Shown piece after piece: positions 6,749-61,707 of a DNA stretch of 64,000 nt. The position numbers were made by a program, and so were the translations under genes. The notes beneath the pieces are model-generated. The model had not been told where the DNA came from. It worked only from the letters and a program-made list of their open reading frames with translations, and ran no database searches. This DNA is from a virus. Taxonomy: Duplodnaviria > Heunggongvirae > Uroviricota > Caudoviricetes. The stretch spans positions 114,987 to 178,986 of IMG/VR virus record IMGVR_UViG_3300031993_000014; one strand, given 5' to 3'. Each line of letters begins with the position of its first letter. Position 1 is the stretch's first letter.

Positions 6749-6779
6749 AAGCTCTCCTTTCTATTGTGAAGTTTCGAGA

Positions 6780-6812
6780 ATATAAAAACCCGTATCTTGC
6801 GATACGGGTCTT
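6780..6812. terminator. rho-independent terminator, cUUGCg tetraloop hairpin
   Basis: acccgtatc-ttgc-gatacgggt is a perfect 9-bp stem at 6788-6809. A/T runs on both sides: TTTTTATATT follows on the minus strand, downstream of the sheath-like gene. Confidence 0.7.
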
Positions 6813-6819
6813 TATTACT

Positions 6820-9800
6820 TTAGCGTTCAACAATGAAGGAGAACACGAAGCGTTCCATGATGTCAACGAACGCCACAGCCACATCAATACGGCAGATTTT
6901 CTGCTGGACATCGTAGTCCGTAGAGGAGATCGTCGGAGTGATGTACTTGAATGCACCCTGAAGGATGTATTCAGCAGCACAAGAATTCAGTTCGCTCATG
7001 AGCTGAGCCTGAACAGTGCCGATAGCGTCCTCGCTGCGGTAGTTACGGCTAATCTTGAGGAAGTCTCTCTTGACAGCCAAGATAGCACGAACAGCATGGA
7101 TAAGCGTCAACGGAGTATTCTTCGTCTGAGAAGTCAGTTCGGTTGCGAAGAAGACACCTTGAGCGTCACGTTCAATGTAGTTGACCTGATGCTTGTAGAG
7201 TTCGCTCATTTCATAGGTCGTCGGCATGTAGGAAATGCTACGGAAGCCAGCGATCGTTCCACGGCGAGCGCCCACAAAGTTCTTGGTCTTACCATTTGCC
7301 ACATCGTTAGACGGGATCTTGGAAGACAAGAAGAACGTCGGAGTAACCTTGATGACCTTACCAGACCAGATATCATTCACAACCAGATGCTGGGTGAAGA
7401 TAGAGGCATAGAAGGTATCGTAGTTCTGTTCATTCTGTCTCTTATCGATAGCCTGAGTAGCGTTGGCAATAGACAAGCCTTGGTCGAGCAACACAATGCA
7501 GTCCTGACGGGTGACAGATGCAAGATCCACCATTGCCTTACGGACAGTTTCATCGTAGTTAGCGTCGAACATCAAATCGAACTCACAGAGGTTCACGTTG
7601 GTGATGAACGGATCAGTCGTACCATTGTAGGCACGGACAAGAGCCTGAGCCAAAGTGCTCGTGTAAGCAGGTTGACCTTCATCGTCTTCATATTCGAAGC
7701 CCCAACCATTACCATACGAACCACCACCGAGATACAGCGAGGTAGCCGGGGTGAGGGTATTGTAGAACCAGAAGGAGACAAACGGTTCAGTATACATCAA
7801 CAGATCAGAGTTATCTCTGGAGTAACGAGTCTGGTCGAGCGTGCAACCATCCACGTCAGCACCGATAGCACTCATGAGGGAAGTGAACGCATACTGTGCA
7901 AGTTCAGTCGTTTCGTACTTTTCACCGAACGTTCTGGTGTTGAATTCATCGAGATCGATACGGTTGAAGATGTACTTAATCACAGTGTCAACATCGACGT
8001 AGATTTCGTTATCATCTTCGTCAGTAACAACCTTGTTGTTAGCATCCTTCACTGCAAGCTTCGTTTCAATGAAGTTCTGGAGGTTGTCGTAGTTGACCAC
8101 GCAAGTCAAGTAAGAAGAGTAGGTGTTCACCACGTCTTCAATAAAGAGGCTTTCCTTAGTAGCAGCCACAGCATCCGGATCGAAGGATACAGAGAACTGT
8201 TCACGAACAATTTCTTCACCCTTGGATTTTTCAATCACGGAGAGCTTGAACATACTCCAATCAGGATAAGTACCATCAAAGTTGTCATCGTAGGTCAGAG
8301 ACACTGCGAGGTTGTTGTACCACTTACCAGAACCCTTCGGCAAGAAGCGGCAGAATTCAACAAAGTTAGCAGAGTTCAAAGTAGCCTGGTCTGCTTCCGT
8401 GATTTCGTCGCGGATTGCACCAACTACATAACCTTCCTTGGCATCTTCAATCTTATCCCAGATGTCGCTGTTCTTGACCTTGATACCGTCTTCGATACGG
8501 TATGCTTCATAGTCAGCAGCAGCTTCCGGAGAGAAGTCAGAGAATGTCGTAGCCACGAGACCGATCGTGTCATAAAGACGTTCGAGATAGTCGAAGTTGC
8601 CTTCGAAAGCACTACCATCGAATTCAACGATCTTGCGAACATAAGCAATCTTTTCACCCGGAATCTGAGATGCCGTGATGGAGGTCTTGCCTTCGTCAAC
8701 ATCGTCGTATGCACGAAGAGTCAGGTTTTCAAGAGAGTCAGAAACAAACGTGAGAGCAGCAGTACCATTGAAGCCAGCCACGGACATGTTACCAGAGAGA
8801 ACTGGAACAAGACCTGCGAACGTGAATTCAAAAGCAGTTCCATAGACGGTGTCGAGCGTAGCCGTACCAGTCGTAGCACCGTTGGCGAGCTTTTCCATCA
8901 CCTTGGATACCGGGATGTCAGAAACGACAATGTTCTGCAATCTGCCATTTTCTTCGGCAGTGAGGTAAGCCGCGATGACGTTCGGGACTTCAGTTGCGTC
9001 GATATCCGTTCTGAGCTTAATGGACGTAGTCGTCACATTGTCATTAGTCGTGGTCACCGTTGTAAACAGTTTACCATAGGACGTACCACGGATGGTGTTG
9101 AATTCATCGGCGGTGATAGCCTTAGTAGTATCAACGGTTACAGAAAGCTTACCTTCAGAAGCGGAAAGCGTATAGAGCGACGGAGTGGCGTTGAAGTAGT
9201 TGACATATTCAAGGTCATTGACAGCCAGCTTTCTTGCAGTACCGCCATCTACAGCAACTTTCCAGTTAGTTTCAGTGGAAACATCAGCACTGAAAGCAAC
9301 CCTCGTTCTCACGATGCTTGCATACTTGGTTTCCATTGCCTTGACCGGATAGGACTTATCGGTCGTCGGAACCATAGCTTCGCTGCTATCGCTCGGCTTG
9401 ATACGGTTGAAACGATATGCTTCCGGAATAGTCACGGCTTCAGAGAACACCGGAGAACCATCCACGATTCTCTTCACGTAGAAGAGGGAAACATTCTTCG
9501 TTGCGCCAGTTGTTTCTGCTGCATTAACGAGAGCTGTAGCGGTTACTTCATTACCAAGCTTGTAGTTGAGGGCATGGAGAGAGTTCCATTCGTCCACTTC
9601 AACCTTAGTGAATGCAGTGTTGTCGTTGATGAGATCCGAGGATACCGGAATATACTGACCGACAGTTGCTTCCTTGTAAACTTCGTAAGAGAAATCCCAA
9701 GATGCTTCATCAGCAGTACCAATCACGAGAGACAGACGGGTCGTAAGCTTTGCAGTGCCGTTCGTAGCGGAAGCGACAATTTCATCGCCACCGAAGAAAG

Positions 9801-10992
9801 TCGTAATATCGACATTTCTGAATACTGCGCGAGCATTGCCAGCAGCGGTTCTGTTATCCTGCAACCAGAGAGACGTGTGCTTTTCGTCCTTCTTGATTTT
9901 AGAACCGAACCCCGGCTTCTTTCCGGTTTCTTCGATTTCGCTTCCTTCAAGTTCAGCCTTGAACTGGTCTGCGGTAGTAGAACCAACGCGACCAAAGAGA
10001 GCTACAAGAGCGCCGTCAAGTGTCGTTGCGATGTCGGTGGTAGCAGCTGCTGCATAAATGCGAACCGTACCAGAGAAGATAAGAACATGAGAAGCCTTGT
10101 CGGCATCTGCGACATCCGGGTCAACAGCTGCAAGAGCCTGTTCATAGGTTTCATATACCTTGATGGAGGTAGCAGAACCAGCAGTTTCAGTTTCAATAGC
10201 CGTACCAACTTCGTCAGTAATGCAGAAATGGTCAGCAAGAATCGTTGCCACAAAGCTCGTAGCAGACGTCGGATCAGCAAAAGTTACACCGCCAACTTCA
10301 CCAACGAAGTAACCATTAGCATTGGAGACAAGCTTAATATCTTGGCTGAAGATACCAGAAAATTCGACATACGGATTGGAGTATGTAACGACATTCTTCT
10401 TAGCCACGGCAGTGATGGTCTTAGTCGTATCAGTGTTCTTGGCCTTGTAGAGTTCGATTTCATCGAGCGTCTGAAGACGGAGAGCAGTGTTGATAGTACC
10501 ATTTTCTTCCACGTAGAACAACGGGAGGATAGCGAAATTGCCGGAACGACCGTCAACAGCAACCTTCTGCTTGTCGTCAGTCTGAGCAAGATTCCAGAGC
10601 TTAATCTGGTCAGTCGTCATTTCGAGACGACGATACTTTTCCTGATCGTTGGTGAAAGCCTGTTCCTTACGGAAACCAATGCCAAGAGAAAGGGCAGCAA
10701 ATCTTTCATCATCCGGGACTACACGGATCACCCAAGCGCCGCCACCAGCATTGATATAATTGAGAGCGTTCAGAGCCGATTGACCGTACTTAGCGTAGGA
10801 CGGTTCACCGAAGTTGAAGATCCATTCACTCTGAGTAGTGATGTAAGTAGCTTCATTCGGCATACCCTTTTCGGCTTCCAAGGCAATGAACATGTTTGTC
10901 AAGCCGCTAGACGATACAGTCAGGACGGCATTATCGATAATACGAGCACTCGAGTGCGGGTGCATGTATTTCGGCAGAGAATCAGCAGCCAT
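6820..10992 (-). CDS. giant tail-sheath-like structural protein, 1390 aa
   Basis: Protein-like composition, whereas the 1416-aa plus-strand ORF over the same DNA is R/S/V-rich antisense noise. The C-terminal ~150 aa (...NFVGARRGTIAGFRSISYMPTTYE...GVFFATELT...AILAVKRDFLKISRNY...) resembles conserved sheath C-terminal domains. T4-like position after terminase. RBS AAGGAGT. The functional call is tentative. Confidence 0.6.
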   Translation of the reverse strand: MAADSLPKYMHPHSSARIIDNAVLTVSSSGLTNMFIALEAEKGMPNEATYITTQSEWIFNFGEPSYAKYGQSALNALNYINAGGGAWVIRVVPDDERFAALSLGIGFRKEQAFTNDQEKYRRLEMTTDQIKLWNLAQTDDKQKVAVDGRSGNFAILPLFYVEENGTINTALRLQTLDEIELYKAKNTDTTKTITAVAKKNVVTYSNPYVEFSGIFSQDIKLVSNANGYFVGEVGGVTFADPTSATSFVATILADHFCITDEVGTAIETETAGSATSIKVYETYEQALAAVDPDVADADKASHVLIFSGTVRIYAAAATTDIATTLDGALVALFGRVGSTTADQFKAELEGSEIEETGKKPGFGSKIKKDEKHTSLWLQDNRTAAGNARAVFRNVDITTFFGGDEIVASATNGTAKLTTRLSLVIGTADEASWDFSYEVYKEATVGQYIPVSSDLINDNTAFTKVEVDEWNSLHALNYKLGNEVTATALVNAAETTGATKNVSLFYVKRIVDGSPVFSEAVTIPEAYRFNRIKPSDSSEAMVPTTDKSYPVKAMETKYASIVRTRVAFSADVSTETNWKVAVDGGTARKLAVNDLEYVNYFNATPSLYTLSASEGKLSVTVDTTKAITADEFNTIRGTSYGKLFTTVTTTNDNVTTTSIKLRTDIDATEVPNVIAAYLTAEENGRLQNIVVSDIPVSKVMEKLANGATTGTATLDTVYGTAFEFTFAGLVPVLSGNMSVAGFNGTAALTFVSDSLENLTLRAYDDVDEGKTSITASQIPGEKIAYVRKIVEFDGSAFEGNFDYLERLYDTIGLVATTFSDFSPEAAADYEAYRIEDGIKVKNSDIWDKIEDAKEGYVVGAIRDEITEADQATLNSANFVEFCRFLPKGSGKWYNNLAVSLTYDDNFDGTYPDWSMFKLSVIEKSKGEEIVREQFSVSFDPDAVAATKESLFIEDVVNTYSSYLTCVVNYDNLQNFIETKLAVKDANNKVVTDEDDNEIYVDVDTVIKYIFNRIDLDEFNTRTFGEKYETTELAQYAFTSLMSAIGADVDGCTLDQTRYSRDNSDLLMYTEPFVSFWFYNTLTPATSLYLGGGSYGNGWGFEYEDDEGQPAYTSTLAQALVRAYNGTTDPFITNVNLCEFDLMFDANYDETVRKAMVDLASVTRQDCIVLLDQGLSIANATQAIDKRQNEQNYDTFYASIFTQHLVVNDIWSGKVIKVTPTFFLSSKIPSNDVANGKTKNFVGARRGTIAGFRSISYMPTTYEMSELYKHQVNYIERDAQGVFFATELTSQTKNTPLTLIHAVRAILAVKRDFLKISRNYRSEDAIGTVQAQLMSELNSCAAEYILQGAFKYITPTISSTDYDVQQKICRIDVAVAFVDIMERFVFSFIVER

Positions 10993-11149
10993 AATTGGAC
11001 TCCTTGTATTTGCTAAAGTTAATATTCATAAGACATTTATGAAATATCGATGCTCATTTTAGAGTTTCTGGAAGGATGATAAAATTGATAGTTTCTTCCT
11101 GAGTAAAATTCAGACTGCTGAGAGTATATTAAACTATGAGGTAAGATTA

Positions 11150-11269
11150 TGTTTATACTACCAGTCTTATTCATCATGCTTCTTTACGGCATCTTTACGA
11201 TGCGTAAGAAGATGCTTGTAGCATTTATCGTGGGGGTGCTATATGGCATTATATCCAGTTCCCACTAGC
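11150..11269 (+). CDS. 39-aa hydrophobic peptide (MFILPVLFIMLLYGIFTMRKKMLVAFIVGVLYGIISSSH)
   Basis: Not in the ORF track because it is under 60 aa. GAGGT 6 nt upstream of the ATG. Predicted single or double TM helix. Opposite strand to the flanking structural genes. Confidence 0.35.
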
Positions 11270-11287
11270 AGCTACAGGAGGCTGAAT

Positions 11288-11434
11288 ATGGCACAGGTAA
11301 TCATTGGGGGAATGATCCTCCTTATCTTATTGTTTGTTATGTTGATAGCAACATTCCTCATCCCCATTATCCTTATGGGCGGTGGAATCATGTTCTTGTT
11401 ATACCAGATAGCCTTGCACATGGGCTGCTTCTAG
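11288..11434 (+). CDS. 48-aa hydrophobic peptide (MAQVIIGGMILLILLFVMLIATFLIPIILMGGGIMFLLYQIALHMGCF)
   Basis: Strong RBS acAGGAGGctgaatATG. Followed immediately by a strong terminator. Two TM helices. Confidence 0.5.
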   Translation: MAQVIIGGMILLILLFVMLIATFLIPIILMGGGIMFLLYQIALHMGCF

Positions 11435-11440
11435 TATGAC

Positions 11441-11483
11441 AAAAAAAAAATAAGTGGTCTATACAACCACTTATTTTTTTTTT
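11441..11483. terminator. bidirectional rho-independent terminator
   Basis: A10, then ataagtggt-ctataca-accacttat (9-bp stem), then T10. Serves the plus-strand small peptide gene and the minus-strand gene ending at 11482. Confidence 0.8.
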
Positions 11484-12213
11484 AACAGTGAATGACTTTC
11501 TCGAACGGAGAGTCAATACCCTTGATGCCCTTCTTTCCGGCTACACAACCCACAGACACAGCTGAGGTAACATCTTCGAATGCAATACCGGAGAATGTTG
11601 AGGTAACTCTCGGTAATTCCTGAATTCGGATGTTCGTATAGTCAGAATCAGAGCCAGTTCTACCAGCGATCTTACGATACGGAGTATAGATGTCTTTAGA
11701 GCTTCGACACATTTCCCCGATCATAGCTTCAGTAACCGACATAGGCACACCCAAGGCAGTGCCATTGAGAGATGACACTTCTTTCAGGAAGTTTGCGATA
11801 TCGGAGTACTTCAGGTTATCAGGGAGCTTACCGCCAAGCAGGAAGTTCAGGAAGAGTTCAGAGTTCTTTCCGTTCTGCACATTGAGAGCTTCTTGGAACA
11901 TGACAGAATTACCTTTGATGGTAAATGCCATGTACTCATCCTCTTCGTGAGTACCCTTGAATTTTTTCTTCTCTTTTCTAGATTCAGCAAAGGGAATAGT
12001 AAGCTTCAAAGGGCAATCAAGCTGCCAGAGTTCCGGCTTGGATGTAGGTGTCTTGTAAATCTCAATGAAAATGAATCCTATGGTCTTAACCAGTTCGCCT
12101 TCGACAACAGAGATTCTCTCATTATCGAAGAAGTACAGAGGGACGTACACCACAGCTTGCGGAGCTGTAAGATAGTAGTCATTCTCAACACGTTTCAGAA
12201 ATGGTAATGCCAT
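11482..12213 (-). CDS. hypothetical virion-module protein, 243 aa
   Basis: ORF with RBS GAGGA before the ATG. Immediately upstream of the sheath-like gene; a tube-like role is possible but unsupported. Confidence 0.65.
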   Translation of the reverse strand: MALPFLKRVENDYYLTAPQAVVYVPLYFFDNERISVVEGELVKTIGFIFIEIYKTPTSKPELWQLDCPLKLTIPFAESRKEKKKFKGTHEEDEYMAFTIKGNSVMFQEALNVQNGKNSELFLNFLLGGKLPDNLKYSDIANFLKEVSSLNGTALGVPMSVTEAMIGEMCRSSKDIYTPYRKIAGRTGSDSDYTNIRIQELPRVTSTFSGIAFEDVTSAVSVGCVAGKKGIKGIDSPFEKVIHC

Positions 12214-12240
12214 AGGATATCCTCACTTTCATATTGGAGT

Positions 12241-13116
12241 TTACTTAGATTCGCTGACATACTGGCCGAGGAGCTTATCAAAGTCTTCGACAGCATGGGC
12301 GAATTCTTCAACGATGCTCATATCAAGACGTTCGAAGACATCTTTCGGCAGGGATCTAGAAGCCATAGCAGCCACGGAAATGGTACTGAGAGTCTTTGCC
12401 AAACCCTTGACGAACTGTCTGGAGTCATAACCGCCGAGTTTGTGGCAGTAATTGGCTACAGCGATGGCGAAGCAACGATAGAGAGATTCCATCGGAGTCT
12501 TCACACAGAAGCGAAGAGCAAGGAGAAGATTCTTGAATGCTGGCTTACCAAGAATTTCGTCAACGTACTTGACAGAGGCTTCGAATTTGTCCTTATCATT
12601 CCATACGTTGACGATAGCAGACGGACGGACATTTTCTTCTTCGAAGAAGCCCATCGTCACTTTCTTCAGCGTAATGCTTTCTTGGAACTGGATATGGTTA
12701 CGGTGAAGCTTCTGGAATTCGATCTTAAGCTTGTTCTTAAGGGAACTCTTACGCTTCGAGCCCTTGTATTCCTTCATCTTTTCGTTGATGAACTTATCGA
12801 GACCAACGGCATACGGTTGTGCAAGGAAGGCACGGGAGACCTTATGGGCAAGATTGAAACCCTTGAGAGTTTCGCCAACGAGAGCCACAGCAGCAGCTTC
12901 ACGCATGGCAGCAGCTTCTTCCTTTTCATCCTTTCCGCTAGCAGATTCCATGATCTCCTGAGCTTTGTCAAGAGCGATGGTTTCATCTTCGCTCATCTGA
13001 GAACGGAGTTCAGCGTTGTCCTTAGCAATTTCTTCGGTTTTCTGTTCAAACGAGTTGATAGCTTCAAGAGCCTGTTCAGCTTGTTCTTCAATTTTCGGTT
13101 CCTGAGTTTCGCTCAT
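12241..13116 (-). CDS. hypothetical acidic helical protein, 291 aa
   Basis: ORF with RBS TAGGAGT. Coiled-coil-like N-terminus. The overlapping plus-strand 278-aa ORF is judged antisense. Confidence 0.65.
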   Translation of the reverse strand: MSETQEPKIEEQAEQALEAINSFEQKTEEIAKDNAELRSQMSEDETIALDKAQEIMESASGKDEKEEAAAMREAAAVALVGETLKGFNLAHKVSRAFLAQPYAVGLDKFINEKMKEYKGSKRKSSLKNKLKIEFQKLHRNHIQFQESITLKKVTMGFFEEENVRPSAIVNVWNDKDKFEASVKYVDEILGKPAFKNLLLALRFCVKTPMESLYRCFAIAVANYCHKLGGYDSRQFVKGLAKTLSTISVAAMASRSLPKDVFERLDMSIVEEFAHAVEDFDKLLGQYVSESK

Positions 13117-13124
13117 GGTTACTC

Positions 13125-13943
13125 CTATTGATTTTTGATAGCGATCTCGCTCAACTGTTGGTATACAGAGAGCGTAATTAAATGCTTTGCTTCAATGTTA
13201 GATTGATCATTCACAGATTTGATAAGGGAATCAAATGCTGTCGGAAGCACAACCAGTTCCAACTTATCAAGAAGAATAGCGTTCTGCCATTCGTCTTCAT
13301 TGTCGGCACAGTAGACTTCGAGTTCCTTGTAGAAGTCCGTAGAAGCGGTGGTTCCTTCAATCACGTCATTGACGACATCTTCAAGACAGTCAAGCAACAC
13401 GAGAAGACCTGTATCTGTAGCCCCAGTATACTTCTTCTGTGCGCCGATATTCTTTCTCGAAGACTTCGATTTATATGTATTTATGAATTCCTTCTTGTGT
13501 TTGAGAATGGATTTCACGATGTAGTTAGCCAGACCTTCCTTGCGGTTAATAACAAGGAACGAGTAGAAAGCTTGAACTAGATCGGCGAAGTCAGCTCCAC
13601 TTCCTTCAGTGCTACCGAAGGCATTGCTAGCTGCATCGATCCCAAAGAATTCCTTAAACTTGGTGAGAAGCCTGATGCGGATGTCATAAAGGTATTCCGT
13701 AAGGAAGTTAGCCTTATCGGTGCATCCTTGTTCTCTGGCTCTTTCCCTGAGAGCCATCACAGTGTTAGTAACGGCTGTAAGGGCATCCTCCTGAGTTTCG
13801 GTAGGAATCTTCTTCAGATCGTCCATCTGCTGAAATAGTCTCTCTTCAAGAGCCAACACATTGTCGTCCATTCGGAACTCTGAATTCCCTGTTCCGAACT
13901 CAAGATCTTCTGTATCGGTCATTAAATCGTTGTACTTGCCCAT
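13125..13943 (-). CDS. hypothetical protein, 272 aa
   Basis: RBS GAAGGA plus 8 nt before ATG at 13943. Overlaps the terminase 3' end by 44 nt. Confidence 0.65.
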   Translation of the reverse strand: MGKYNDLMTDTEDLEFGTGNSEFRMDDNVLALEERLFQQMDDLKKIPTETQEDALTAVTNTVMALRERAREQGCTDKANFLTEYLYDIRIRLLTKFKEFFGIDAASNAFGSTEGSGADFADLVQAFYSFLVINRKEGLANYIVKSILKHKKEFINTYKSKSSRKNIGAQKKYTGATDTGLLVLLDCLEDVVNDVIEGTTASTDFYKELEVYCADNEDEWQNAILLDKLELVVLPTAFDSLIKSVNDQSNIEAKHLITLSVYQQLSEIAIKNQ

Positions 13944-19601: not shown

Positions 19602-20777
19602 TTATGCCGACAACAGGATGCAGTAGTCTTTAAGCTCTTCATCCATGTCTTTATAAGCCTGGCTGTAGTCATGACACATAGTATCAATTTCCATTCTGGG
19701 AATAAGTCTTCCTTTAGAGTCATGCTTGAGCACAACCGCAGGAAGGTTGCGATACTTGTAAGCCGGAAGTTCCGGAGCCATTTCACAAGGCCAGACGATA
19801 TACGGCGTTTCTGTGGAGTCGATAGTGCGTACATACTTCACGAACTTTTCCGGTTCTCTGATGAGATCACGGAATTTCACGATCGTACCAGAACCTACAC
19901 TGAGCTGAACATGGGTGTATCCATCCTTGTCAACCCAAACCATCTTGGACTTGTTATAGCCTGCCATACGCCAGATAACCGGAATATCGCGAGTATAGAA
20001 CAAGCTAAGATAAGTGTTAGAGTTACTCTTACGGAACGCATCAGCACTAGTAAACAACGGTTCATAGTCTTTCGCATTTTCAAGATTCCTGAACAAGTCT
20101 TCTGCATTGACATCAACAATAGAAACTCGATCTCTCCAGTATCCCGCAATGTCAGTGCTTTCACCTGCAACTAGCAAGAGCAGAGTATAATCTTCATACC
20201 CCGGCTTACTAACATCAAGCGGTTCAGGCTCAAGAGTATCTTTATTGAGAGCGAAGTACCATGCTGGAACATCCATTGTATTATTGTCCGTATCCGTGAT
20301 CATGATAGAATTATTTTCTGTACCTTTGATGATAGCATCAAGACATGTTCCAACGTAGTCATAGCCTTGAGCCATCTTCTGTCTCATCTTGCTCACATAA
20401 CGGAACAGAGACTTATGCTTAACAAATTTAGCAAACGGGTCTTCCTTGGCAGGTTCAACTTCTACCTTCGGGGCTTCTGGAGCAGGTGCTTCTTCCGTAG
20501 CCGGAGGAACTGCAACTAGAGCTTCTTCAGTCGGTGTTTCAGAAGCCGGAGCTTCTTCTGCAGCGGGAGTTTCTGGTGCAGGTGCTTCTTCAGCCGGAGC
20601 TTCGTCAAATTCAGGAGCTTCATCGGTAGCTTCGGGAACTGTCGTAGGGCGGATTCCAGCTTCTTCCTCATCAAGAACATCCACTGGGCCTGTCGGAGCC
20701 GGGTCAAAGTCTGCACGGATTCCGGTATCAGCCGGAGCTTCTTCGATTTCGGCTTCTTCTACTTCATTATTCTCCAT
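19602..20777 (-). CDS. protein with acidic Pro/Glu/Ala-rich repetitive N-terminus (EAPAPE-type repeats) and ~250-aa globular C-terminus
   Basis: 391-aa ORF. The N-terminal 110 aa are low complexity. The C-terminal part contains K-x3-SLFRY ... ITDTDN, spaced like PolB motifs B and C but degenerate. Confidence 0.6.
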   Translation of the reverse strand: MENNEVEEAEIEEAPADTGIRADFDPAPTGPVDVLDEEEAGIRPTTVPEATDEAPEFDEAPAEEAPAPETPAAEEAPASETPTEEALVAVPPATEEAPAPEAPKVEVEPAKEDPFAKFVKHKSLFRYVSKMRQKMAQGYDYVGTCLDAIIKGTENNSIMITDTDNNTMDVPAWYFALNKDTLEPEPLDVSKPGYEDYTLLLLVAGESTDIAGYWRDRVSIVDVNAEDLFRNLENAKDYEPLFTSADAFRKSNSNTYLSLFYTRDIPVIWRMAGYNKSKMVWVDKDGYTHVQLSVGSGTIVKFRDLIREPEKFVKYVRTIDSTETPYIVWPCEMAPELPAYKYRNLPAVVLKHDSKGRLIPRMEIDTMCHDYSQAYKDMDEELKDYCILLSA

Positions 20778-20924
20778 AAACTACCTCTCTGAAGAGCATA
20801 TTGACTTCTTCATTCAATTCTTCCTTGGATTCCGCTTCCACTTCTTCAAATGTCTTCGGCTTTTCCTCGGTTTCTTCTGTCTGTTGTGTACTCATTTGTT
20901 TGCTTCCTTATGGTTAAGGTCATT

Positions 20925-20970
20925 TCTTTATATAAAATTATCTGCCAAGCCTTTAAGCTTGGCAGATAAT
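20925..20970 (-). terminator. rho-independent terminator
   Basis: ttatctgccaagc-ctttaa-gcttggcagataa is a 13-bp perfect stem. TTTTATATAAAG follows on the minus strand, directly after the stop of the PolB motif-A fragment. Confidence 0.75.
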
Positions 20971-20974
20971 GTGT

Positions 20975-21286
20975 TTATGCGAGAGAGAGAATTCGTTTTG
21001 TCCACTCGGTATGTGACGGAAGTCCGAAGTACTGCTCGCCGATCTTAATATCATTTCTCGTCATGATATAATTGGCAAGCGTAGCGGAGTACTCGATATC
21101 GTTCGTGTTATTCTTCGGAAGAATCTTCCCAAGCATCGTAGTGATAAAGAGATTCCATGCAATCTTGATGGACGGATACAGTGACGACAAGTCAGAGTCA
21201 CAGACAAAGTCATAGATAAGAGTACTGACTTCACCAAGAATCTCAACACCGTTAGCGATAAGAAGATTAGGATCAGCTACAACATT
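20975..21286 (-). pseudogene. family-B DNA polymerase fragment carrying motif A (…YDFVCDSDLSSLYPSIKIAWNLF…); no ATG start; candidate downstream exon or remnant
   Basis: Open frame from a TAA at ~21289 down to the stop at 20975. It contains the exact PolB motif A core SLYPSI. The track ORFs 20975..21190 and 21061..21249 are TTG-started pieces of this region. Confidence 0.5.
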
Positions 21287-22072
21287 ATGTTACGAATGTT
21301 CGCTACACATTCTCTCTATATCTCTATAGAGTTCAGACTATATTATACGCTAAAAGCGCTCATGTCTTTCGGTCTCGCTTGAGACCTACTCCCTTACGGG
21401 ATAGTCGTTGAACGTTCTCACTTTTCGCTAAGAATATTAAGCTCTCTTTCCTTCATGGCACGATACTCAGATGCTTGTTTAAAAGCCTCTTCGTAGCCTA
21501 AATCTCTTATAGAGAAACACTTGCAGAAATGTCTATCGTTCTCATTCCACTGTGCTATAAAGAGATCAGACCTATTTCCCTGTGCCTTTTTGAAGTATAC
21601 TCCTGTCCTTCCGCTAGAGTTATTTCGTGATTTTCGGCAGTTCAGATTATTCTCTGTCGAAGATACAATACGAAGATTCTCTCTTCGGTTATCAAGAGTA
21701 TTGCGATTAATATGGTCAACAATATCTGTTCGTGACATGGCATTAAGGACGTATCTATGCAACTTGCAAGTCTTTCCGTTCATTTTGCAAGCCACATAAT
21801 GATTCTCATTTGTTGAATCCTTTATGTACCATTGTCTAGAAGACACTCGTTCAAGATCTTCTCTTGAGATGAGCACTTCGCCATCGATTTTGTTGCCTGT
21901 AATCACAAGCTTAACAGTCTTGCTATCTAAGATTTCAAATTTATTCATATTGAAAAGTTAGATGTAAGCTTCGCTGCTGATTGTCCAATCCCAAAGATTG
22001 TCACCATTTGGTACTTTGGGCTCTAAGGAGTTTCCAGCAATTAACATGATTTAACGTGCGCATGTAGATTGT
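21287..22072 (-). mobile_element. putative group-I-intron-like insertion carrying a homing endonuclease gene within the DNA polymerase gene
   Basis: ~785 nt between the PolB exo-domain ORF stop and the motif-A frame. It holds the HNH ORF plus ~120 and ~170 nt of non-coding flanks. This resembles intron-encoded HNH endonucleases in phage DNA polymerase genes (SPO1/SP82 type). No ribozyme secondary structure was verified. Confidence 0.3.
21418..21948 (-). CDS. HNH homing endonuclease with C-terminal AP2 DNA-binding domain
   Basis: ...HRYVLN...VDHINRNTLDNRRENLRIV... is an HNH_3 motif. ...SGRTGVYFKK...WNENDRHFCKCFSIRDLGYEEAFKQASEYRAMKE is an AP2 domain. Confidence 0.85.
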   Translation of the reverse strand: MNKFEILDSKTVKLVITGNKIDGEVLISREDLERVSSRQWYIKDSTNENHYVACKMNGKTCKLHRYVLNAMSRTDIVDHINRNTLDNRRENLRIVSSTENNLNCRKSRNNSSGRTGVYFKKAQGNRSDLFIAQWNENDRHFCKCFSIRDLGYEEAFKQASEYRAMKERELNILSEK

Positions 22073-23683
22073 TTACGCACCCTTGAATTTGACCTTCTTT
22101 TCAGCCTGAATGTTAGCAACTTGAGATTCGACTTCCTCAAGATTGTCATTAACCAATTCTTCGTCTTCTTCGTTCTCAGCTTCACCCACTTCAGTATAGT
22201 CTACAGCCGTCTTGTCAGAGCGATACGGCTCTAGTTCAGGATACTTGATTGGGTTATCACCATTTGCTCGTTTCTTGTCATAAATCTTATTGAACAATCT
22301 GGTACGGTTGTTAGACAATACTAGACCGCATTTCGTAATGAAGAACCACTCGATGAAGTTGCGAAGCATGGTTGTCTTTGTAAGCACTTTATTTTCACGA
22401 GTATGGGTCAACCCACGGAACAACATGATAGTATCAACGTCACTGACCTTCTCTTCAATCCAGTACATGACAAGAGTATCTTGCCCAGAGTATTTACAGA
22501 ACAACGGATAATTTTCATACGGAAAGTCAGCCATTTCGATATCATCATGTTCAACCTTACGAACCTTGATGACATTCTCAGCCAACCAGTCAAGAGAGTA
22601 GTCTTCAGGGCTAGAGTTACGGATGGCGTAATAGTTCTGCTGCATGTCTATGATAGAATAGAAAGCAGGAATATAGTAACCATCGTGCTTCTTCTTGATA
22701 TCCTTAGCGAAGCGGTCAGCCTTATAGTATGCTCTGCGATAGTCCTTCGGGAATTCCTTCGGAGCAATGATATCACCAGGATCGTACCCGAGATTCTCCA
22801 ATCTTCTGATGGTGAAACCCCAGTCGAAGCCGTGGTTGAAAGCGATGACAACATCTGCTGCAAACCTGTAGTTGAGATCATTGAAGTGATCCGTAATCAA
22901 GTCAATTTCTTTTCCATAGAACTTGATTTCAACATTGATGTGCGGTTTCGGAATTTCCTTAAAGATAGATTTCTGAATAGCGTTCCACTCGTCTTCGTAT
23001 TTCTTACGAATGTTCTCAATGTCTGCCTTGAATTCGTTAATCTGCGGATTCTTTTCCACATACTGGCCGTCAACAGAGTCATCGAGGAATCTCAACACAA
23101 GCGTAGATGTTCTTGTATCGAAGCAAGAGATAGCGTTAATCGGAGTGATGGCTTCATCTGCTTCCACGAAACGACGAATCTTTCTGTTATCGCATTCGAT
23201 ATCCCAAAAGACTTTGTTAAGGCGAATGGATTTATCTTCGCCACCATTCGGTTCGAGCTTAGTATCGAAGAATCTACGAATATAGTGGTCAGCCAAGTCA
23301 ACATCTGCACCGTGAACGAACGGACAGAGGAAGAAGTTCTCAGGACTGACTTTGTTCTTTCTAAATCTGTCTAAGAGAGCATAGTTGGCATCTGCCTTTT
23401 CCTTATCGAAGGTGGCTTGATAGTCAATGATGGCTTCATAAATGTTCTTATACTCGCACTCAATCTCTTCCGTTTCGTTAACCGGAACGACATACGGGTT
23501 ACTACCATGCTTCTCAACAAACTCAGGCTTCGATACATGGAACCTGACTGTCGGATTGTCATCGAAGTCGAACTTGCGTACACCATTCTCATAATAGACA
23601 GTGAGAACGCCAGTATTGTATGGCTTCACGTCCGTCTTAGTAACGAGCTTCTTTACTGAAATAAGCTTGTACTTCTTTTCCAT
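22073..23683 (-). CDS. family-B DNA polymerase N-terminal/3'-5' exonuclease domain protein, 536 aa
   Basis: Exo I KVFWDIECD, Exo II IAFNHGFDWGFTIRRL, Exo III KYSGQDTLV. No polymerase motifs A-C. Acidic C-terminal tail. Confidence 0.8.
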   Translation of the reverse strand: MEKKYKLISVKKLVTKTDVKPYNTGVLTVYYENGVRKFDFDDNPTVRFHVSKPEFVEKHGSNPYVVPVNETEEIECEYKNIYEAIIDYQATFDKEKADANYALLDRFRKNKVSPENFFLCPFVHGADVDLADHYIRRFFDTKLEPNGGEDKSIRLNKVFWDIECDNRKIRRFVEADEAITPINAISCFDTRTSTLVLRFLDDSVDGQYVEKNPQINEFKADIENIRKKYEDEWNAIQKSIFKEIPKPHINVEIKFYGKEIDLITDHFNDLNYRFAADVVIAFNHGFDWGFTIRRLENLGYDPGDIIAPKEFPKDYRRAYYKADRFAKDIKKKHDGYYIPAFYSIIDMQQNYYAIRNSSPEDYSLDWLAENVIKVRKVEHDDIEMADFPYENYPLFCKYSGQDTLVMYWIEEKVSDVDTIMLFRGLTHTRENKVLTKTTMLRNFIEWFFITKCGLVLSNNRTRLFNKIYDKKRANGDNPIKYPELEPYRSDKTAVDYTEVGEAENEEDEELVNDNLEEVESQVANIQAEKKVKFKGA

Positions 23684-32093: not shown

Positions 32094-33986
32094 ATGTCCG
32101 TTTCTTACATGCAACCTTCTCAGAAGATGGCTGCTTGCAATGACTCGTTCACCTCCACTCTTCGCGAAGTGGCTGAAGAATTCAGCGCAAGCAATGTTAA
32201 CATCTTCAACGCCGATGACTTCAAAGACGTCTTGGGCGATGATGGCCTCTTTGGTCGTTATTCTGAAATGCTCGCTGCTGGCCTTGATGAAGCCGAAGCA
32301 GAACAGTTCAAGACTATTGCACAGTCTTCTCGTATTGAAGCTCTCGAAGCTGCCTCCCTTGGTACAGTTGCTCCGATGTCCTTCCTCCAGACCCCGATGC
32401 TCCGTAAGTCTTGGGCTCGTACGGCTATGAACAAGGCTATCCCGACGGAAGCTGTTGAAAAGCCGAAGTTCACCATTAACTACCTCCATCCGTGGCTCAA
32501 GGATCTTCAGGGCAACAAGCACTATGTGCCGGAAAACCTCATGGACATCGATACCGCTGTCTCTAAGGTTCGCCTTGCTGAAGATGTGAAGTTCTATTTC
32601 GGCGCAGGTAACTGCTTCTCCATGAATCTCCTCACTGGTCTTGATGTTGACGAATTCGGCAACGACATTGCTAATTCTAAGAACTACAAGACTCCGACTG
32701 GCGGTACTGCGGATTCTACTCCGAAGTATGATGCAGCTATCGGCATGGTCAACCATGAAAATGACGAAGTTGACGTGAACGTTTCTGTCATTACGGCTGG
32801 CTTCGATTCTTCGAAATATGTTGCCAATGCTGGTGTTCTCGTTAACGGTGTTTCGAGAAAGCTCTTGGCTCCGGCTTCCGGAACAGTCGCTCTTACTCTT
32901 AACGGCACCGCTCTCACCGATGCTGATCTCGTCAAGAACTGCAAGATCGAATGCGGCACCCGTCGTGGTGGCATCAAGGGTGTTGTGACCCTCGACGTTG
33001 AAGTTGATGCAGCTTGCATTGATTCTGGTGCAACTGGTACCGTCATCGTGACGCTCGTTGACGCTATCTACGGTGACGTTGATGTGAAGACTGGTCGTCT
33101 CACTCTCATGCAGCAGCATGGCAACCTCAAGTTTGTCATGATCAAGGCATTCGTGTCCTCTGTCATGAACAACAGCACTCTTCAGGTTGGCTTCGATATC
33201 CGCGACAAGGAAATCCACATCGGTACTGGTGAACACCTTGAAGCTCCGGTTCCGAACGAATACATCACGGACTTGCTCCGTATGTTTACGCTCAACGGTG
33301 TTTCCAAGCTCGTGGAAATCCTCTCCAGCTTCCTCGCTCAGAAGATGGACTTGGATGGCGTTAACTTCATGGATGAAGTTATTGATGACGCTATCGAACA
33401 GGCTCCGAATGGCGACTTCGTTCGTGCATTCTCTGCAAAGCCGGTGGGTAACTACCAGCTGAACCCGGCAGAATGGCCCAAGATGCTTACCAAGGTGCTC
33501 GACCACCTCTCCATGAGCATCATCAACATGTACCATTACGAACAGGGTTACTTCGTTGCGGCTTGCAACCCGCTCGATGCAGCTCTCATTCCGGACATCA
33601 ACTGGGTGTTCCACGGTAATGGTCAGTCCGAATATGCTGGCGTGAATGCTAACATTGCCTTCGGTCAGTATCAGGGTATCAACTCTTGGAAGGTTGTCTC
33701 CTCTCCGAACATCCCGCAGGGCGCTATCCGCGTTCTCTTCATCCCGACTGTTCAGGATCAGATGACTTACAAGCTCTATACCTACAGCTTCATGCTCGAA
33801 CAGGCTGGCTCTGGCTACAACAGCCCGAAGAACACTTACGTTCCGACCATCCTCACCTCTCGTCGTTACGCCTATGTTGACGTGATGCCGGGCGCAGGTC
33901 GTGTGACGATCACGAACAACAGTGCAAACTTCTACAGTTTTGCAGGCGTGTCGCCTTATTTGCCGACTGAAACGTTCATCCACTAA
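32094..33986 (+). CDS. abundant virion structural protein, candidate major capsid protein, 630 aa
   Basis: Strongly optimised codon usage (ggt/ggc/cgt/ctc/ttc/aac). Lone plus-strand gene among minus-strand genes. Followed by a perfect UUCG terminator. The 649-aa minus-strand ORF over the same region is judged antisense. No HK97 motif can be verified by eye. Confidence 0.8.
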   Translation: MSVSYMQPSQKMAACNDSFTSTLREVAEEFSASNVNIFNADDFKDVLGDDGLFGRYSEMLAAGLDEAEAEQFKTIAQSSRIEALEAASLGTVAPMSFLQTPMLRKSWARTAMNKAIPTEAVEKPKFTINYLHPWLKDLQGNKHYVPENLMDIDTAVSKVRLAEDVKFYFGAGNCFSMNLLTGLDVDEFGNDIANSKNYKTPTGGTADSTPKYDAAIGMVNHENDEVDVNVSVITAGFDSSKYVANAGVLVNGVSRKLLAPASGTVALTLNGTALTDADLVKNCKIECGTRRGGIKGVVTLDVEVDAACIDSGATGTVIVTLVDAIYGDVDVKTGRLTLMQQHGNLKFVMIKAFVSSVMNNSTLQVGFDIRDKEIHIGTGEHLEAPVPNEYITDLLRMFTLNGVSKLVEILSSFLAQKMDLDGVNFMDEVIDDAIEQAPNGDFVRAFSAKPVGNYQLNPAEWPKMLTKVLDHLSMSIINMYHYEQGYFVAACNPLDAALIPDINWVFHGNGQSEYAGVNANIAFGQYQGINSWKVVSSPNIPQGAIRVLFIPTVQDQMTYKLYTYSFMLEQAGSGYNSPKNTYVPTILTSRRYAYVDVMPGAGRVTITNNSANFYSFAGVSPYLPTETFIH

Positions 33987-48863: not shown

Positions 48864-50162
48864 CTACTTCTTGTGGGGGTTGAGATCAGATTTGATGAAA
48901 TCATCAATAATCTTTGTATGGTGGAAAGCGAGGACTGGCAGATCGTAGATGGGGAACCATCTAGCTTCAGCCGCATCATCGCCAGCTGTAATCATATCTT
49001 CTTCGTCAGGATCAATCTTTACAAAGAAGGCAGTATCGACAATCCGCATACGAGGATCGAACTTGCAGCTGTATGTCTTGATCTGATGGAAGTTGTTAGA
49101 GCAGAAATGCAATCCAACTTCTTCAGAGAATTCTCTAGCTGCGGTAGATTCAAGGCTTGGATCGTTTTCGACATCAAAGAATCCACCCGGAAGAGCCCAG
49201 TAGTCTTTATAAGGGTAATCCTTACGGCGGACAAGGAGGACTTCTTCGGACTGGTTCACAGCCACGATGTCAACAGTCGCAGAAGGCTCGCCATATGCCT
49301 TCATGATAGAATCTTTGAGCATAGCCATACCAGCCGTAGCAAAGACAGCTGAGCCAGTCTGTTCATTGGCAGGTTCATTGACCTTTATACAATTATCCTT
49401 GTATAAAGCCAGTGCTTGATTACCAGCATCGTTGTAGATTTCGTCAAAGTGTTCGCGGATATACTTGACAGTATTCTTCTTATACTTTTCAAGGAAGATT
49501 TCTTCGCCTCGTCTGTATTCCTGAAGACGGTGCTGATGATACAGAGATCTGGAAAGAATGTAGTTAGCTGCTGCATCAGGCAATCCGAGTGCCTTGAACT
49601 TCTCCGGATGATTTTCAAGGATGAATGGATGCAGTTCAAGCAATTCACGGATTTTAGTAGAGGAAACCTTCTTTGTAAGCAGGGAGTCGTCACCGAGCTC
49701 AAGCCTGATAAACGGCTTGGATTGCGGAACTTTCTTCCAGAGTGCTTCAAGAGTATCGTATTTTCTAAATCCACGTTCTGCTACGATAAAGTTAGCGTAG
49801 TGCATGAGAGCATTGCTGTTACGCCATTTTCCATTGGCGATGTTCATTGCCTGATCCATCCCGACAACGATATAAGCATCTTCGATGTTGAGCTTAAGCG
49901 TTTCCGTAATATAGTCATACATACGGGCATCTTGTTCCGCAATTCTGAAGGACTTATGAAGCGGAGCAAAAGCTCTTCTTACCATTTCCATGCGGTCTTC
50001 GTAAGAGGAATTATATACCTTTTCGTCATTGCAGGAAATGAGAACGATGGCTTCAAAGCCATCAGTAAAGTTCTTGAAGGCATAGTCCAATGCTTTTTCA
50101 AATACGGCTCTGTGACCGATAGTGACAGGGTCAAATGCCCCGCCATAGATCAATGTCCTCAT
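48864..50162 (-). CDS. bifunctional NMN/NaMN adenylyltransferase with C-terminal Nudix hydrolase (NadM/NatV-like)
   Basis: IYGGAFDPVTIGHRAV is the (H/T)xGH motif. KVSSTKIRELL is the ISSTxIR motif. Nudix box GGFFDVE...AAREFSEEVGL. Start ATG overlaps the pncB stop (TAATG). Confidence 0.85.
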   Translation of the reverse strand: MRTLIYGGAFDPVTIGHRAVFEKALDYAFKNFTDGFEAIVLISCNDEKVYNSSYEDRMEMVRRAFAPLHKSFRIAEQDARMYDYITETLKLNIEDAYIVVGMDQAMNIANGKWRNSNALMHYANFIVAERGFRKYDTLEALWKKVPQSKPFIRLELGDDSLLTKKVSSTKIRELLELHPFILENHPEKFKALGLPDAAANYILSRSLYHQHRLQEYRRGEEIFLEKYKKNTVKYIREHFDEIYNDAGNQALALYKDNCIKVNEPANEQTGSAVFATAGMAMLKDSIMKAYGEPSATVDIVAVNQSEEVLLVRRKDYPYKDYWALPGGFFDVENDPSLESTAAREFSEEVGLHFCSNNFHQIKTYSCKFDPRMRIVDTAFFVKIDPDEEDMITAGDDAAEARWFPIYDLPVLAFHHTKIIDDFIKSDLNPHKK

Positions 50163-51442
50163 TAATAAGCCCTCCACAAGCGTTGCGAGTTATGTTTCTC
50201 AATGATAGTCTTAACGAATTCCGTGATTGCTTCCGGATTATCCTTAAGATAAGCAAGCTCGCTCAGAGGCTGATAGTTAAAGTCATTCTTGACTCTGATG
50301 ATCTGTTCTTCGTCGTCATGGTTGCACTTGCCAGCAACATCGCTCAGCTTGATAGCCGAGATACCGTTACCGCTATAGAGCTTCATGACCATATTGAGAG
50401 GATCACCACCAACGGTATTGGTGAGGAATGTGCCTTGTCCGATGGCAACATTGATAACATGAGCAAACATCTTAACGAGCATTACCACATCATCATCCTT
50501 CAAACTGTCGCTAAAGCAAGCGGTCTTAGTAAGAGGATTGATCTTGAGCTGCTTGTAGAATTCGATAAGGATCTGGCACCAGAGTACTGGATCGCCACTG
50601 TCATGGCGAACACCGTCGGCGAGCTTGGCATAGAGCAAGTCGAAGTCTTCGAGGAAGGCCTTGAAACCATAGGTGTCGCTGAGGAAGATACCGAGATTGC
50701 CACGATATTCACGAAGCCATGCATCGAAGGTTGCACGCTGCGATTCCGAGAGACGGAACTTAGAAATCGTCTGGAGAAGCATGAACATCTGATGGGCCAT
50801 TGTACCCATGTCCTTCACGCCGTTGATCATTGCCATATAGACATTACTTGTACCAACGAAAGCCTTGCAGTTTTCGATAAGGTACTTGACAACGAACATC
50901 TGCCAATCAAAGCTTGCACGGCGACGAGTACCGAAGTCGCTGAGAGTAAACTTGTAGCCCTCGTCGTAGATCTTGTTATACTTGTCTACGGCTTCCTTCA
51001 AACGCTTCTTGCCGAATTCATAATCGGTAGGCTGGTCAATCATCCACAGTTCCTGAATGATCTCAAGGACGTAGATTTCAAACCAATGGTCACGTTCTTC
51101 AAGACCATTAGTCCATACTCCAAGGACATCACCATCACGGGCGACATGGATGTCTTCACGAGGGAGACGGAAGTCACGGAGCCAACGAATGTAGTCTTCG
51201 CTGTACCAATTGTGACTTGCGATAAAGGAGAGTTCATCTTCTCCGTGCTTAAGTTCACAGAGATGATTGAGCTGATACTCAAGTTCATCTTTCAGGTAAG
51301 CAGTCTTCTTACCTTGCGAACGGATTGTCAACTTCCACTGCGAACGTTCGTTCGGGAACTGGTGATGAAGTACCTGACCCATCGAATACTTGTAAGCATC
51401 CGTGTCGGTAAGGTGATTGACGATGCACTTATAGTGACCCAT
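50162..51442 (-). CDS. pncB: nicotinate phosphoribosyltransferase
   Basis: Blocks align to E. coli PncB: HLTDTDAYKYSM (LLDTDAYKLHM), LSDFGTRRRAS (MDFGTRRRFS), AFVGTSN, GVRHDSGDP, KLSDVAGK. Confidence 0.85.
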   Translation of the reverse strand: MGHYKCIVNHLTDTDAYKYSMGQVLHHQFPNERSQWKLTIRSQGKKTAYLKDELEYQLNHLCELKHGEDELSFIASHNWYSEDYIRWLRDFRLPREDIHVARDGDVLGVWTNGLEERDHWFEIYVLEIIQELWMIDQPTDYEFGKKRLKEAVDKYNKIYDEGYKFTLSDFGTRRRASFDWQMFVVKYLIENCKAFVGTSNVYMAMINGVKDMGTMAHQMFMLLQTISKFRLSESQRATFDAWLREYRGNLGIFLSDTYGFKAFLEDFDLLYAKLADGVRHDSGDPVLWCQILIEFYKQLKINPLTKTACFSDSLKDDDVVMLVKMFAHVINVAIGQGTFLTNTVGGDPLNMVMKLYSGNGISAIKLSDVAGKCNHDDEEQIIRVKNDFNYQPLSELAYLKDNPEAITEFVKTIIEKHNSQRLWRAY

Positions 51443-51445
51443 GTT

Positions 51446-51631
51446 TTACCTCGTTGAGAGTTTTAGGAGTGTATAGAGAACCATTAGGAACAGTATCACA
51501 GGTGTTCCCAGATAGATTATTACTGCAATGAGTATAATCTTCCACATTGGTAAATGTCTCTTAGGATTTACCAATAGCATAAACAATACTATAAAGAATG
51601 TAGCTAGAATAGTCCATGTTATCAGAATCAT
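51446..51631 (-). CDS. small 2-TM hydrophobic protein, 61 aa
   Basis: MILITWTILATFFIVLFMLLV...IILIAVIIYLGTPVILFLMVLYTLL. Confidence 0.5.
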   Translation of the reverse strand: MILITWTILATFFIVLFMLLVNPKRHLPMWKIILIAVIIYLGTPVILFLMVLYTLLKLSTR

Positions 51632-52967: not shown

Positions 52968-53377
52968 TCCATTACTCCTACCTTGTATTTTCTAGCTATT
53001 TCGATTGCGCCAAAGGCTTGTTTCTTTAGTGCCTCAACACGATTACGAGTTAAAAGTCTATGGCGATCTTCTTTCGTATTGCTCCATCTTCGTGTTGCCG
53101 GATCATAGATAGACATAGAAGTTACAGACCAGATAGTAGGCTCGTACATGCTCTTATCTTTTCTGGACACCTCTGAGAAGACAAATGTGGCGTTGTTGGT
53201 ATGGACATCAACCGTATAGCAATCAAGACCGGGTATTCCCCACATCTCTAGAGCAAGCAAATCTAGCATACGCAAGATTTCGAAATGCTCTTCTTTTGTT
53301 GCCATACGGTCTTCTTGTCTTCTACAACGCTCCATGTCCTCTTTGAGGTTAACTACGCTGTCATCAAGCTCGCTCAT
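52964..53377 (-). CDS. small-protein paralog family member
   Basis: C-terminal KQAFGAIEIARKYK. Stop and start overlap with neighbours. Confidence 0.6.
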   Translation of the reverse strand: MSELDDSVVNLKEDMERCRRQEDRMATKEEHFEILRMLDLLALEMWGIPGLDCYTVDVHTNNATFVFSEVSRKDKSMYEPTIWSVTSMSIYDPATRRWSNTKEDRHRLLTRNRVEALKKQAFGAIEIARKYKVGVME

Positions 53378-53777: not shown

Positions 53778-53794
53778 TAAACCTCCCTGTTAGT

Positions 53795-61633: not shown

Positions 61634-61707
61634 ACATTTCTCCTTGTATACTCTTTATTATATACTATGAAAAAATAAAGCTCATGGACGAATCCATGAG
61701 CAATTCT

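Follow-up and report, generated by a model that had tools for sequence, protein, structure and literature searches.

A 64,000-nucleotide (nt) stretch of viral DNA (IMG/VR record IMGVR_UViG_3300031993_000014, positions 114,987 to 178,986; hereafter the window) carries a minus-strand locus that is, with high probability, one gene for the 638-amino-acid (aa) N-terminal subunit of a split family-B DNA polymerase (PolB), interrupted by a group I intron with an HNH-AP2 endonuclease. The original prediction, made without database searches, had already compared the locus to invasion of a phage polymerase gene by a group I intron and homing endonuclease, and on this point it is borne out both by Rfam matches on the two flanks of the endonuclease gene, sub-threshold as they are, and by intron-less alleles in close relatives. 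It had also raised a polymerase in several pieces, a decaying pseudogene and a strongly diverged C-terminal part downstream, which are taken up below. Selfish elements in essential phage genes are commonplace, and this locus is a clear instance of one; the polymerase itself is not broken. Its parts are:

22075..23683, minus strand: exon 1 of the PolB N-terminal subunit gene, comprising codons 1-536 and base 1 of codon 537.
21283..22074, minus strand: predicted group I intron of 792 nt, IA2-like, with an endonuclease open reading frame (ORF) in loop L6, recognized from intron-less alleles, Rfam, covariation and fold.
21418..21948, minus strand: predicted HNH-AP2 homing endonuclease of 176 aa, in L6, with matches in Pfam, PHROG and PDB.
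20975..21282, minus strand: exon 2, comprising bases 2-3 of codon 537, codons 538-638 and the stop codon, with motif A as DSDLSSLYPS.
20937..20970, minus strand: terminator-like hairpin 5 nt past the exon-2 stop, with a 15-bp stem that includes 6 G-C pairs.

The splice junctions can be placed to the base by comparison with an intron-less allele on a contig that is syntenic with the window (L005). This allele reads AAGTTCAAGGGAGCGT|TCGTGGCTGATCC at the junction; exon 1 of the window ends at 22075 in ...AAGGGTGCGT (in longer form, AAATTCAAGGGTGCGT), exon 2 starts at 21282 with TTGTAGCTGATCC, and the two alleles are collinear base for base across the join. Collinearity with intron-less alleles thus sets exon 1 at 23683..22075, the intron at 22074..21283 and exon 2 at 21282..20975. 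The interruption lies 27 codons 5' of motif A, between GCGU and UUGUAG, or ...KFKGA|FVADPN... in the protein, and the joined exons encode 638 aa, exactly the length of the uninterrupted metagenomic homologue P0001. A 3' splice site after G21280 was also considered and was rejected by the alignment: it would give KGA-LADPN, one residue short of all homologues, whereas placing it after G21283 yields KGAFVADPN and improves P10.

In the list of ORFs, exon 1 appears as a 536-aa ORF (23683..22073, minus strand) closed by a TAA across which the 5' splice site falls: T22075 is the final base of exon 1. The frame with motif A and without an ATG, which had been noticed at the outset and given a start near 21286, is in fact open from 21289, and exon 2 proper, bearing CDSDLSSLYPSIKIAWNLF, begins at 21282; neither ATG nor GTG occurs 5' of motif A in this frame, the first in-frame start being a TTG within motif A, at 21190. 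The two non-coding flanks of the endonuclease ORF are likewise real, and measure 126 nt (22074..21949) and 135 nt (21417..21283) rather than about 120 and 170. The minus-strand terminator expected just past the motif-A frame is there as well (20970..20937), its 15-bp stem followed by TTTTAT in the downstream run TTTTATATAAA. Public gene calls for this phage (L008) list an HNH gene and a 536-aa "hypothetical protein" and leave a gap, with no call, over exon 2.

A check of related phages for an uninterrupted gene had been proposed, and several have one. Intron and endonuclease are present together in the window and in L008, and are precisely absent from L005-L007, L011/L012 and P0001-P0003, which are 83-88% identical; L012, a 235-kb IMG/VR contig at 83% identity, has an uninterrupted polymerase gene. 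At the protein level, KFKGAFVADPN runs unbroken over the junction in these relatives (83-88% aa identity), and the pattern K-G-A-F-V-x-x-P spans it in P0001-P0008, in AR9 and in phiR1-37. Uninterrupted metagenomic homologues of the joined exons range from P0001 (638 aa, 88%) through P0002/P0003 (83-85%) to P0005-P0008 (42-63%). A co-conversion signature was not seen: the identity of the exons to intron-less alleles has neither dip nor peak at the junction.

The best reading of the locus is one gene for the N-terminal subunit of the two-subunit PolB of an AR9/phiKZ-type jumbo phage; the N-terminal domain of this protein is followed by the 3'-5' proofreading exonuclease and by the opening segment of the palm, in which motif A lies. 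The exon-1 ORF matches phrog_3011 ("DNA polymerase") over profile positions 43-454 of 576 (E 6.4e-31), and exon 2 continues at positions 481-562 (E 1.5e-6). By tblastn, exon 1 finds AR9 g132 (E 2.5e-41) and phiR1-37 g170 (E 1.6e-27), and exon 2 finds the same two genes (6e-11, at residues 451-545 of AR9 g132, and 3.7e-6, respectively). The segment around motif A also matches Pfam DNA_pol_B (E 0.0014), so the motif-A frame does resemble PolB in profile searches, as had been supposed. The assignment of 22073..23683 to the PolB N-terminal and exonuclease domains is confirmed, and the residues of Exo I (D161-I-E163), Exo II (N283/D287) and Exo III (Y398/D402) fall in invariant columns of the family alignment; motif A, as D-x-D-x-S-S-x-Y-P, is invariant there too. 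A PDB sequence search with exon 1 gave no meaningful match, and a fold search was used instead: P0001, which is 88% identical and has no intron in its gene, gives an AlphaFold model that resembles RB69/T4 gp43 (Foldseek E 1.5e-18 over some 465 columns). Confidence in the model is high for residues 1-460 and low for residues 482-609, which take in the motif-A segment and, before it, an acidic insert; low values would be expected for the segment if it folds only against a partner subunit. The acidic, low-complexity insert (...EVGEAENEEDEELVNDNLEEVESQV..., about 22240..22080 on the minus strand, residues ~482-535) is specific to this clade and immediately precedes the intron site; some 50-80 residues long, it is missing in AR9 and phiR1-37 and is modelled with a predicted local distance difference test (pLDDT) score below 50.

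Among sequenced phages, relatives of the polymerase ORF are confined to the AR9/PBS1/vB_BpuM-BpSp group, Yersinia phage phiR1-37 and jumbo phages of Staphylococcus (including S6 and MarsHill), Fusobacterium and Listeria, at 23-31% identity, and two metagenomic contigs, of 242,489 and 195,304 bp, contain the ORF itself. On both counts the host of the intron is an uncultivated jumbo phage, a distant relative of AR9-like phages. The neighbouring genes include those for a 1390-aa tail sheath protein, the large terminase and a baseplate/portal-region protein.

The inserted DNA has the architecture of a group I intron:

22056..22080, minus strand: P1 with the internal guide, in which GUGCGU (22080..22075) and A22074 pair with UGCGCAC (22062..22056).
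22067..22063 with 21281..21277, minus strand: P10, 5 bp between CUACA, immediately 5' of the P1 guide segment, and UGUAG of exon 2.
21960..22049, minus strand: 5' half of the core, with P3 (UCAUG), P4 (UGCUGG), P5, P5a/b, P4' and the 5' strand of P6 (CUUAC).
21283..21421, minus strand: 3' half of the core, first part, with P6', J6/7, P7 (GACUA), P7.1 (UCCC-GUAA-GGGA) and P7.2.
21283..21421, minus strand: 3' half of the core, remainder, with P3' (CAUGA), P8, P7' (UAGUC), P9, an extra hairpin and the terminal G.

In P1 the last exon-1 base forms a U.G wobble (U22075 with G22061), the intron ends in ...AUAAUG with its terminal G at 21283, and the UGA stop of the endonuclease falls within the 3' strand of P6 (GUGAG, 21421..21417). 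A sensitive Rfam scan found Intron_gpI on both non-coding flanks as its only notable matches. For covariation, the window intron with its ORF deleted was aligned over its whole length with nine introns that score above the Rfam threshold (57-117 bits). All pairs of P3, P4, P5, P5a, P6, P7, P7.1, P7.2, P8 and P9 are formed in the window intron; across the alignment, standard pairs fill 93.7% of pair cells and 26 of the 40 pairs show compensatory changes. None of 500 shuffles matched this, and sliding the 3' partner by 1-3 columns reduced pairing to 35-45%. P7 and P7.1 do not vary and so carry no information on this point; P3, P5, P6, P8 and P9 supply the covariation. An unconstrained minimum-free-energy fold of the ORF-deleted precursor recovers P1, P3-P6, P7.1, P7.2, P8 and P9. 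Since both P7.1 and P7.2 are present, the architecture suggests subgroup IA2. Taken from the sequence, the insertion in the polymerase gene is thus very likely to be a group I intron with its own homing endonuclease.

The core belongs to a widespread family. Pseudomonas phage PhiPA3 has 32 nt of it without a mismatch in an unannotated region, which Rfam scores as a group I intron (71.7 bits), and the core 27-mer GTTCAACGACTATCCCGTAAGGGAGTA occurs exactly in PhiPA3 and in 93 IMG/VR stretches; among 20 such loci that were scanned, at least 10 have it inside Intron_gpI matches of 62-117 bits. An exact 33-mer of the core has no match in IMG/VR, and this polymerase subunit is encoded at none (0/93) of the IMG/VR intron-core loci. 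In some IMG/VR phage contigs, introns with this 27-nt P7/P7.1 core are present in two or three copies per few kb (examples are L116 171..2908, L142 902..1224, L160 3288..3610 and L104 767..1308), and in two contigs a pair of copies is only 296 nt apart.

The ORF in L6 had been called an HNH-AP2 homing endonuclease gene. Its HNH half is above cut-off (Pfam HNH_3, 30.3 bits against 24.8, residues 76-101), with phrog_99 ("HNH endonuclease") matching at E 2.8e-24; the AP2 half is a sub-threshold call in Pfam, and a PDB sequence search matches a solved AP2 domain (9fi8) to residues 110-174 (E 0.002). The gene also uses codons that the phage avoids (TTA for 2/13 Leu and TCA for 4/15 Ser, as against TCA for 0/97 Ser in the sheath gene), a usage consistent with a foreign origin or recent arrival.

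The following scheme may be proposed. The pre-mRNA would fold into the group I core, and exogenous guanosine would attack after U22075, at the U.G pair of P1; P10 would align exon 2, and the exons would be ligated past the terminal G at 21283. The spliced mRNA, with the predicted junction GGUGCGU|UUGUAGCUG, would encode the 638-aa protein and end at the terminator, and ribosomes on unspliced RNA would stop at the UAA that spans the 5' splice site. When relatives infect the same cell, the endonuclease would cleave an allele that lacks the intron, at the insertion site or close to it, and repair would then copy the intron across (homing). The two alleles, with and without the intron, define a predicted target for the enzyme, the L005-type sequence AAGTTCAAGGGAGCGTTCGTGGCTGATCC. 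The 638-aa product would join a separate catalytic subunit carrying the motif-B fingers, motif-C palm and thumb (PF20286) to form the active polymerase, the predicted gene for this partner being located outside the 64-kb window.

The last step bears on the absence of motifs B and C, which the original prediction had rightly anticipated for a spliced product and which the 638-aa sequence indeed lacks. In the relatives these motifs and the thumb are on a separate protein. The N-terminal subunits AR9 g132 (554 aa) and phiR1-37 g170 (576 aa) finish 60-90 residues after motif A, as do all 12 of the 12 aligned proteins; AR9 g152 (641 aa) is encoded 17 kb from g132, and phiR1-37 g167 (420 aa) is on the opposite strand. 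These catalytic subunits match Pfam PF20286 (divDNApol, "Divergent Family B DNA polymerase", 148 bits), have homologues in AR9, PBS1, BpSp, phiR1-37 and Staphylococcus jumbo phages, and are 34% identical between AR9 and phiR1-37 (E 3e-53). AR9 gp132 and gp152 are described as two continuously expressed genes (PMC5312081), and a "split subunit DNA polymerase" of phiKZ-related phages is referred to elsewhere (PMC5105663). A two-subunit family-B polymerase is the norm for the clade, so that the lack of motifs B and C at this locus is its normal state rather than a defect. The motif-A fragment is accordingly no orphan: it is exon 2 of a gene that ends naturally about 70 residues past motif A, like AR9 g132 and phiR1-37 g170. 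The suggestion of a polymerase made of several separately translated pieces proves apt for the clade, where two subunits are the rule, though not in the sense that was meant.

In one other uncultivated jumbo phage (L188, a 239-kb contig from JGI 3300042922), the catalytic PolB is itself split, into 411-aa and 248-aa ORFs (10001..12584). The halves are about 600 nt apart with a small reverse-strand ORF between them, and the gap is probably another intron or insertion.

Several results weigh against an intron-split but functional polymerase gene. No Rfam family reaches its gathering threshold in the window: against the 50 bits set for Intron_gpI (RF00028), the partial matches score 24.5 bits (21314..21577, E 0.0011) and 19.2 bits (21913..22039, E 0.044). 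A low score is to be expected, because the 531-nt ORF in L6 splits the model, and ORF-less introns with the same 27-nt core reach 57-117 bits. Pfam has no match for the 536-aa exon-1 ORF by itself and no direct one for the N-terminal subunit, the identity of which rests on PHROG, homology to AR9 and similarity of fold. The AP2 match of the endonuclease is 26.1 bits (E 1e-5), under the cut-off of 33.3. Splicing activity is predicted from DNA.

The partner subunit adds a further difficulty. Within the window, a catalytic subunit was detected neither by tblastn with AR9 g152 and phiR1-37 g167, nor by a two-sequence hidden Markov model (HMM), nor by a 103-sequence catalytic-subunit HMM run with filters off against six-frame ORFs of at least 30 aa. 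The flanks of L005, L008, L011, L012 and L186 have none either, nor does the DNA for about 8 kb past the right end of the window, where a 694-aa gene is not a polymerase; the leftward extension consists of a 1.2-kb contig only. Two IMG/VR scans with catalytic-subunit alignments, each keeping the best 80 of 210-248 relatives, gave no clade partner and are uninformative, because the retained loci did not include the 235-kb relative IMGVR_UViG_3300031992_000008. Two further contigs (those of P0112 and P0131) have no genes in common with the window and gave no clade partner. As the partner was not found in the regions searched, that this phage has a complete polymerase is argued from its relatives: every sequenced one has a catalytic subunit, and by that analogy this phage should encode one as well.

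Could the gene simply be in pieces? An endonuclease cassette might have split it with no splicing at all, leaving a 536-aa protein, a fragment of about 100 aa and the catalytic subunit as a three-piece polymerase. There is a precedent in Aeromonas phages related to T4, where nrdA or gene 43 has been split by a free-standing endonuclease gene; the exon-1 ORF does have its own stop codon, the Rfam score at the locus is sub-threshold, and the clade already tolerates a polymerase in parts. Three observations nevertheless make it improbable. Exon 2 offers no ATG or GTG 5' of motif A, only the TTG at 21190, which argues against its separate translation; a complete core supported by covariation, with P1, P10 and the terminal G, brackets exactly the inserted DNA; and the stop codon in question straddles the splice site.

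Decay is more doubtful still. If the insertion had inactivated the N-terminal gene, a working polymerase would be encoded elsewhere; the failure to find a catalytic subunit in the window fits this, as does the fact that the gene caller of the public contig passed over exon 2. Against it, both exons are intact and in frame, the Exo and motif-A residues are all conserved, every helix of the intron core is intact, and no second polB-like sequence is present in the 64 kb. The 102 codons of exon 2 differ from those of L005, at 83% nucleotide identity, by 35 synonymous and 6 non-synonymous changes, so that the exon is, by these counts, under purifying selection; this ratio, with the retained Exo I-III and motif A residues, rules out the decaying pseudogene that had been suggested.

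The third alternative concerns what follows the terminator:

20767..20895, minus strand: 42-aa acidic ORF, overlapping the 391-aa ORF.
19602..20777, minus strand: 391-aa ORF, with an N-terminal third rich in Pro, Ala and Glu.

Both are kept in the same position in L005 (as 410 aa, at 52% identity, and 45 aa), and neither has a Pfam or PHROG match. Being directly downstream on the same strand, the longer one had been put forward as a highly diverged C-terminal part with motifs B and C, and hhalign does pair its ITDTDNN with the motif C VVDTDSN of the catalytic-subunit profile, but at a probability of 0.9% over 23 columns; the 103-sequence HMM finds nothing in it at E<=1 with filters off, and a true orthologue should be detectable, given how strongly the AR9 and phiR1-37 subunits are conserved (34%, E 3e-53): this idea has next to no likelihood, and on sequence comparison the 391-aa protein does not appear to be a polymerase part.

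It is a classical finding that essential replication genes of phages harbour group I introns with homing endonucleases. In the T4 td, nrdB and sunY introns (IA2), as in the window intron, P7.1 and P7.2 lie between P7 and P3', the endonuclease ORF occupies a peripheral helix, an in-frame stop falls at or just after the 5' splice site, and the insertion is at a highly conserved protein site in a gene of nucleotide or DNA metabolism; the likeness is one of architecture (P7.1/P7.2), not of compared sequences. The T4 endonucleases are, however, GIY-YIG I-TevI and I-TevII, whereas that of the window is of the HNH class, and the host gene also differs. The DNA polymerase introns of Bacillus phages SPO1 and SP82, with the HNH endonucleases I-HmuI and I-HmuII, to which the original prediction had likened the locus, are likewise group I introns in a phage polymerase gene, but there the polymerases are single-chain family A enzymes and I-HmuI lacks an AP2 domain; a PDB sequence search with the window endonuclease returned no I-HmuI match.

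The cases nearest in host gene are in Staphylococcus phages Madawaska and Machias and Bacillus phage vB_BpuM-BpSp (gp207/gp206), in which the same gene family, the N-terminal/exonuclease subunit of a split PolB, has a short insertion. As with the window, some phages have the insertion while close relatives are uninterrupted, and group I introns and homing endonucleases abound in the genomes. The insertion site differs: GA|FV, 27 codons before motif A, in the window; before residue ~286 in Madawaska; and near ~318 in BpSp. The window intron also bears a full HNH-AP2 ORF, unlike those insertions, and its clade is only 25-30% identical to these phages. Introns in "DNA polymerase subunits" of AR9-like Staphylococcus jumbo phages have been reported (bioRxiv 10.1101/2020.12.14.422802). 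In MarsHill, AR9 and phiR1-37 this particular gene is uninterrupted. Set beside the two-gene systems of AR9 (gp132 and gp152) and phiR1-37 (g170 and g167), the spliced product is the orthologue of gp132/g170, with the same domains and the same C-terminal end; the acidic insert of ~50-80 residues upstream of the intron site is its own and has no counterpart in those two.

The window has some other peculiarities. Very long ORFs run antisense to real genes: one of 1416 aa (6766..11016, plus strand) lies opposite the tail sheath gene (6820..10992, minus strand), and others are at 32094..33986, 50135..51457, 12295..13131 and 22403..23374, all on the plus strand. Phage genes nearly never use TTA, CTA or TCA, the complements of which are stop codons (none of 93 Leu and none of 97 Ser codons in the sheath gene). 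At 1390 aa the sheath protein has roughly double the normal length, even by the standard of jumbo phages, and its end-to-end alignment with phrog_19666 is confined to the final ~280 residues. At 48864..51442 (minus strand) is a gene pair resembling NAD+ salvage enzymes: one member is like nicotinamide phosphoribosyltransferase (phrog_448, E 1e-15), and the other is a cytidylyl/adenylyltransferase fused to a NUDIX domain (phrog_395, phrog_1198). Some 24 packed and often overlapping ORFs of 100-165 aa fill 52964..62136 on a single strand (minus), with weak similarity between neighbours (10 non-self blastp matches); the array recurs in the Logan contig L270. No tRNAs were found in the window.

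What might the arrangement do for the phage? A doubtful pair of ideas, prompted by the sequence, is that the efficiency of splicing may set the ratio of exonuclease to subunit and, separately, that the HNH-AP2 enzyme may act in phage competition on a target not so far described. If the first were true, unspliced mRNA would yield a stand-alone 536-aa protein of N-terminal domain and exonuclease, and spliced mRNA the 638-aa subunit that completes the palm; if the second, the target would be the GA|FV site of the split-PolB exonuclease subunit, and the setting a rivalry between co-infecting jumbo phages of gut or rumen.

For annotation, a 536-aa "hypothetical protein", an HNH gene and a gap become one 638-aa polymerase subunit with defined splice junctions. 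Systems of this kind are already known: what is new is the insertion site, the host clade and the HNH-AP2 enzyme. With them, the two-subunit PolB and its colonization by group I introns are extended from cultured AR9-like phages to a distant clade of uncultivated jumbo phages.

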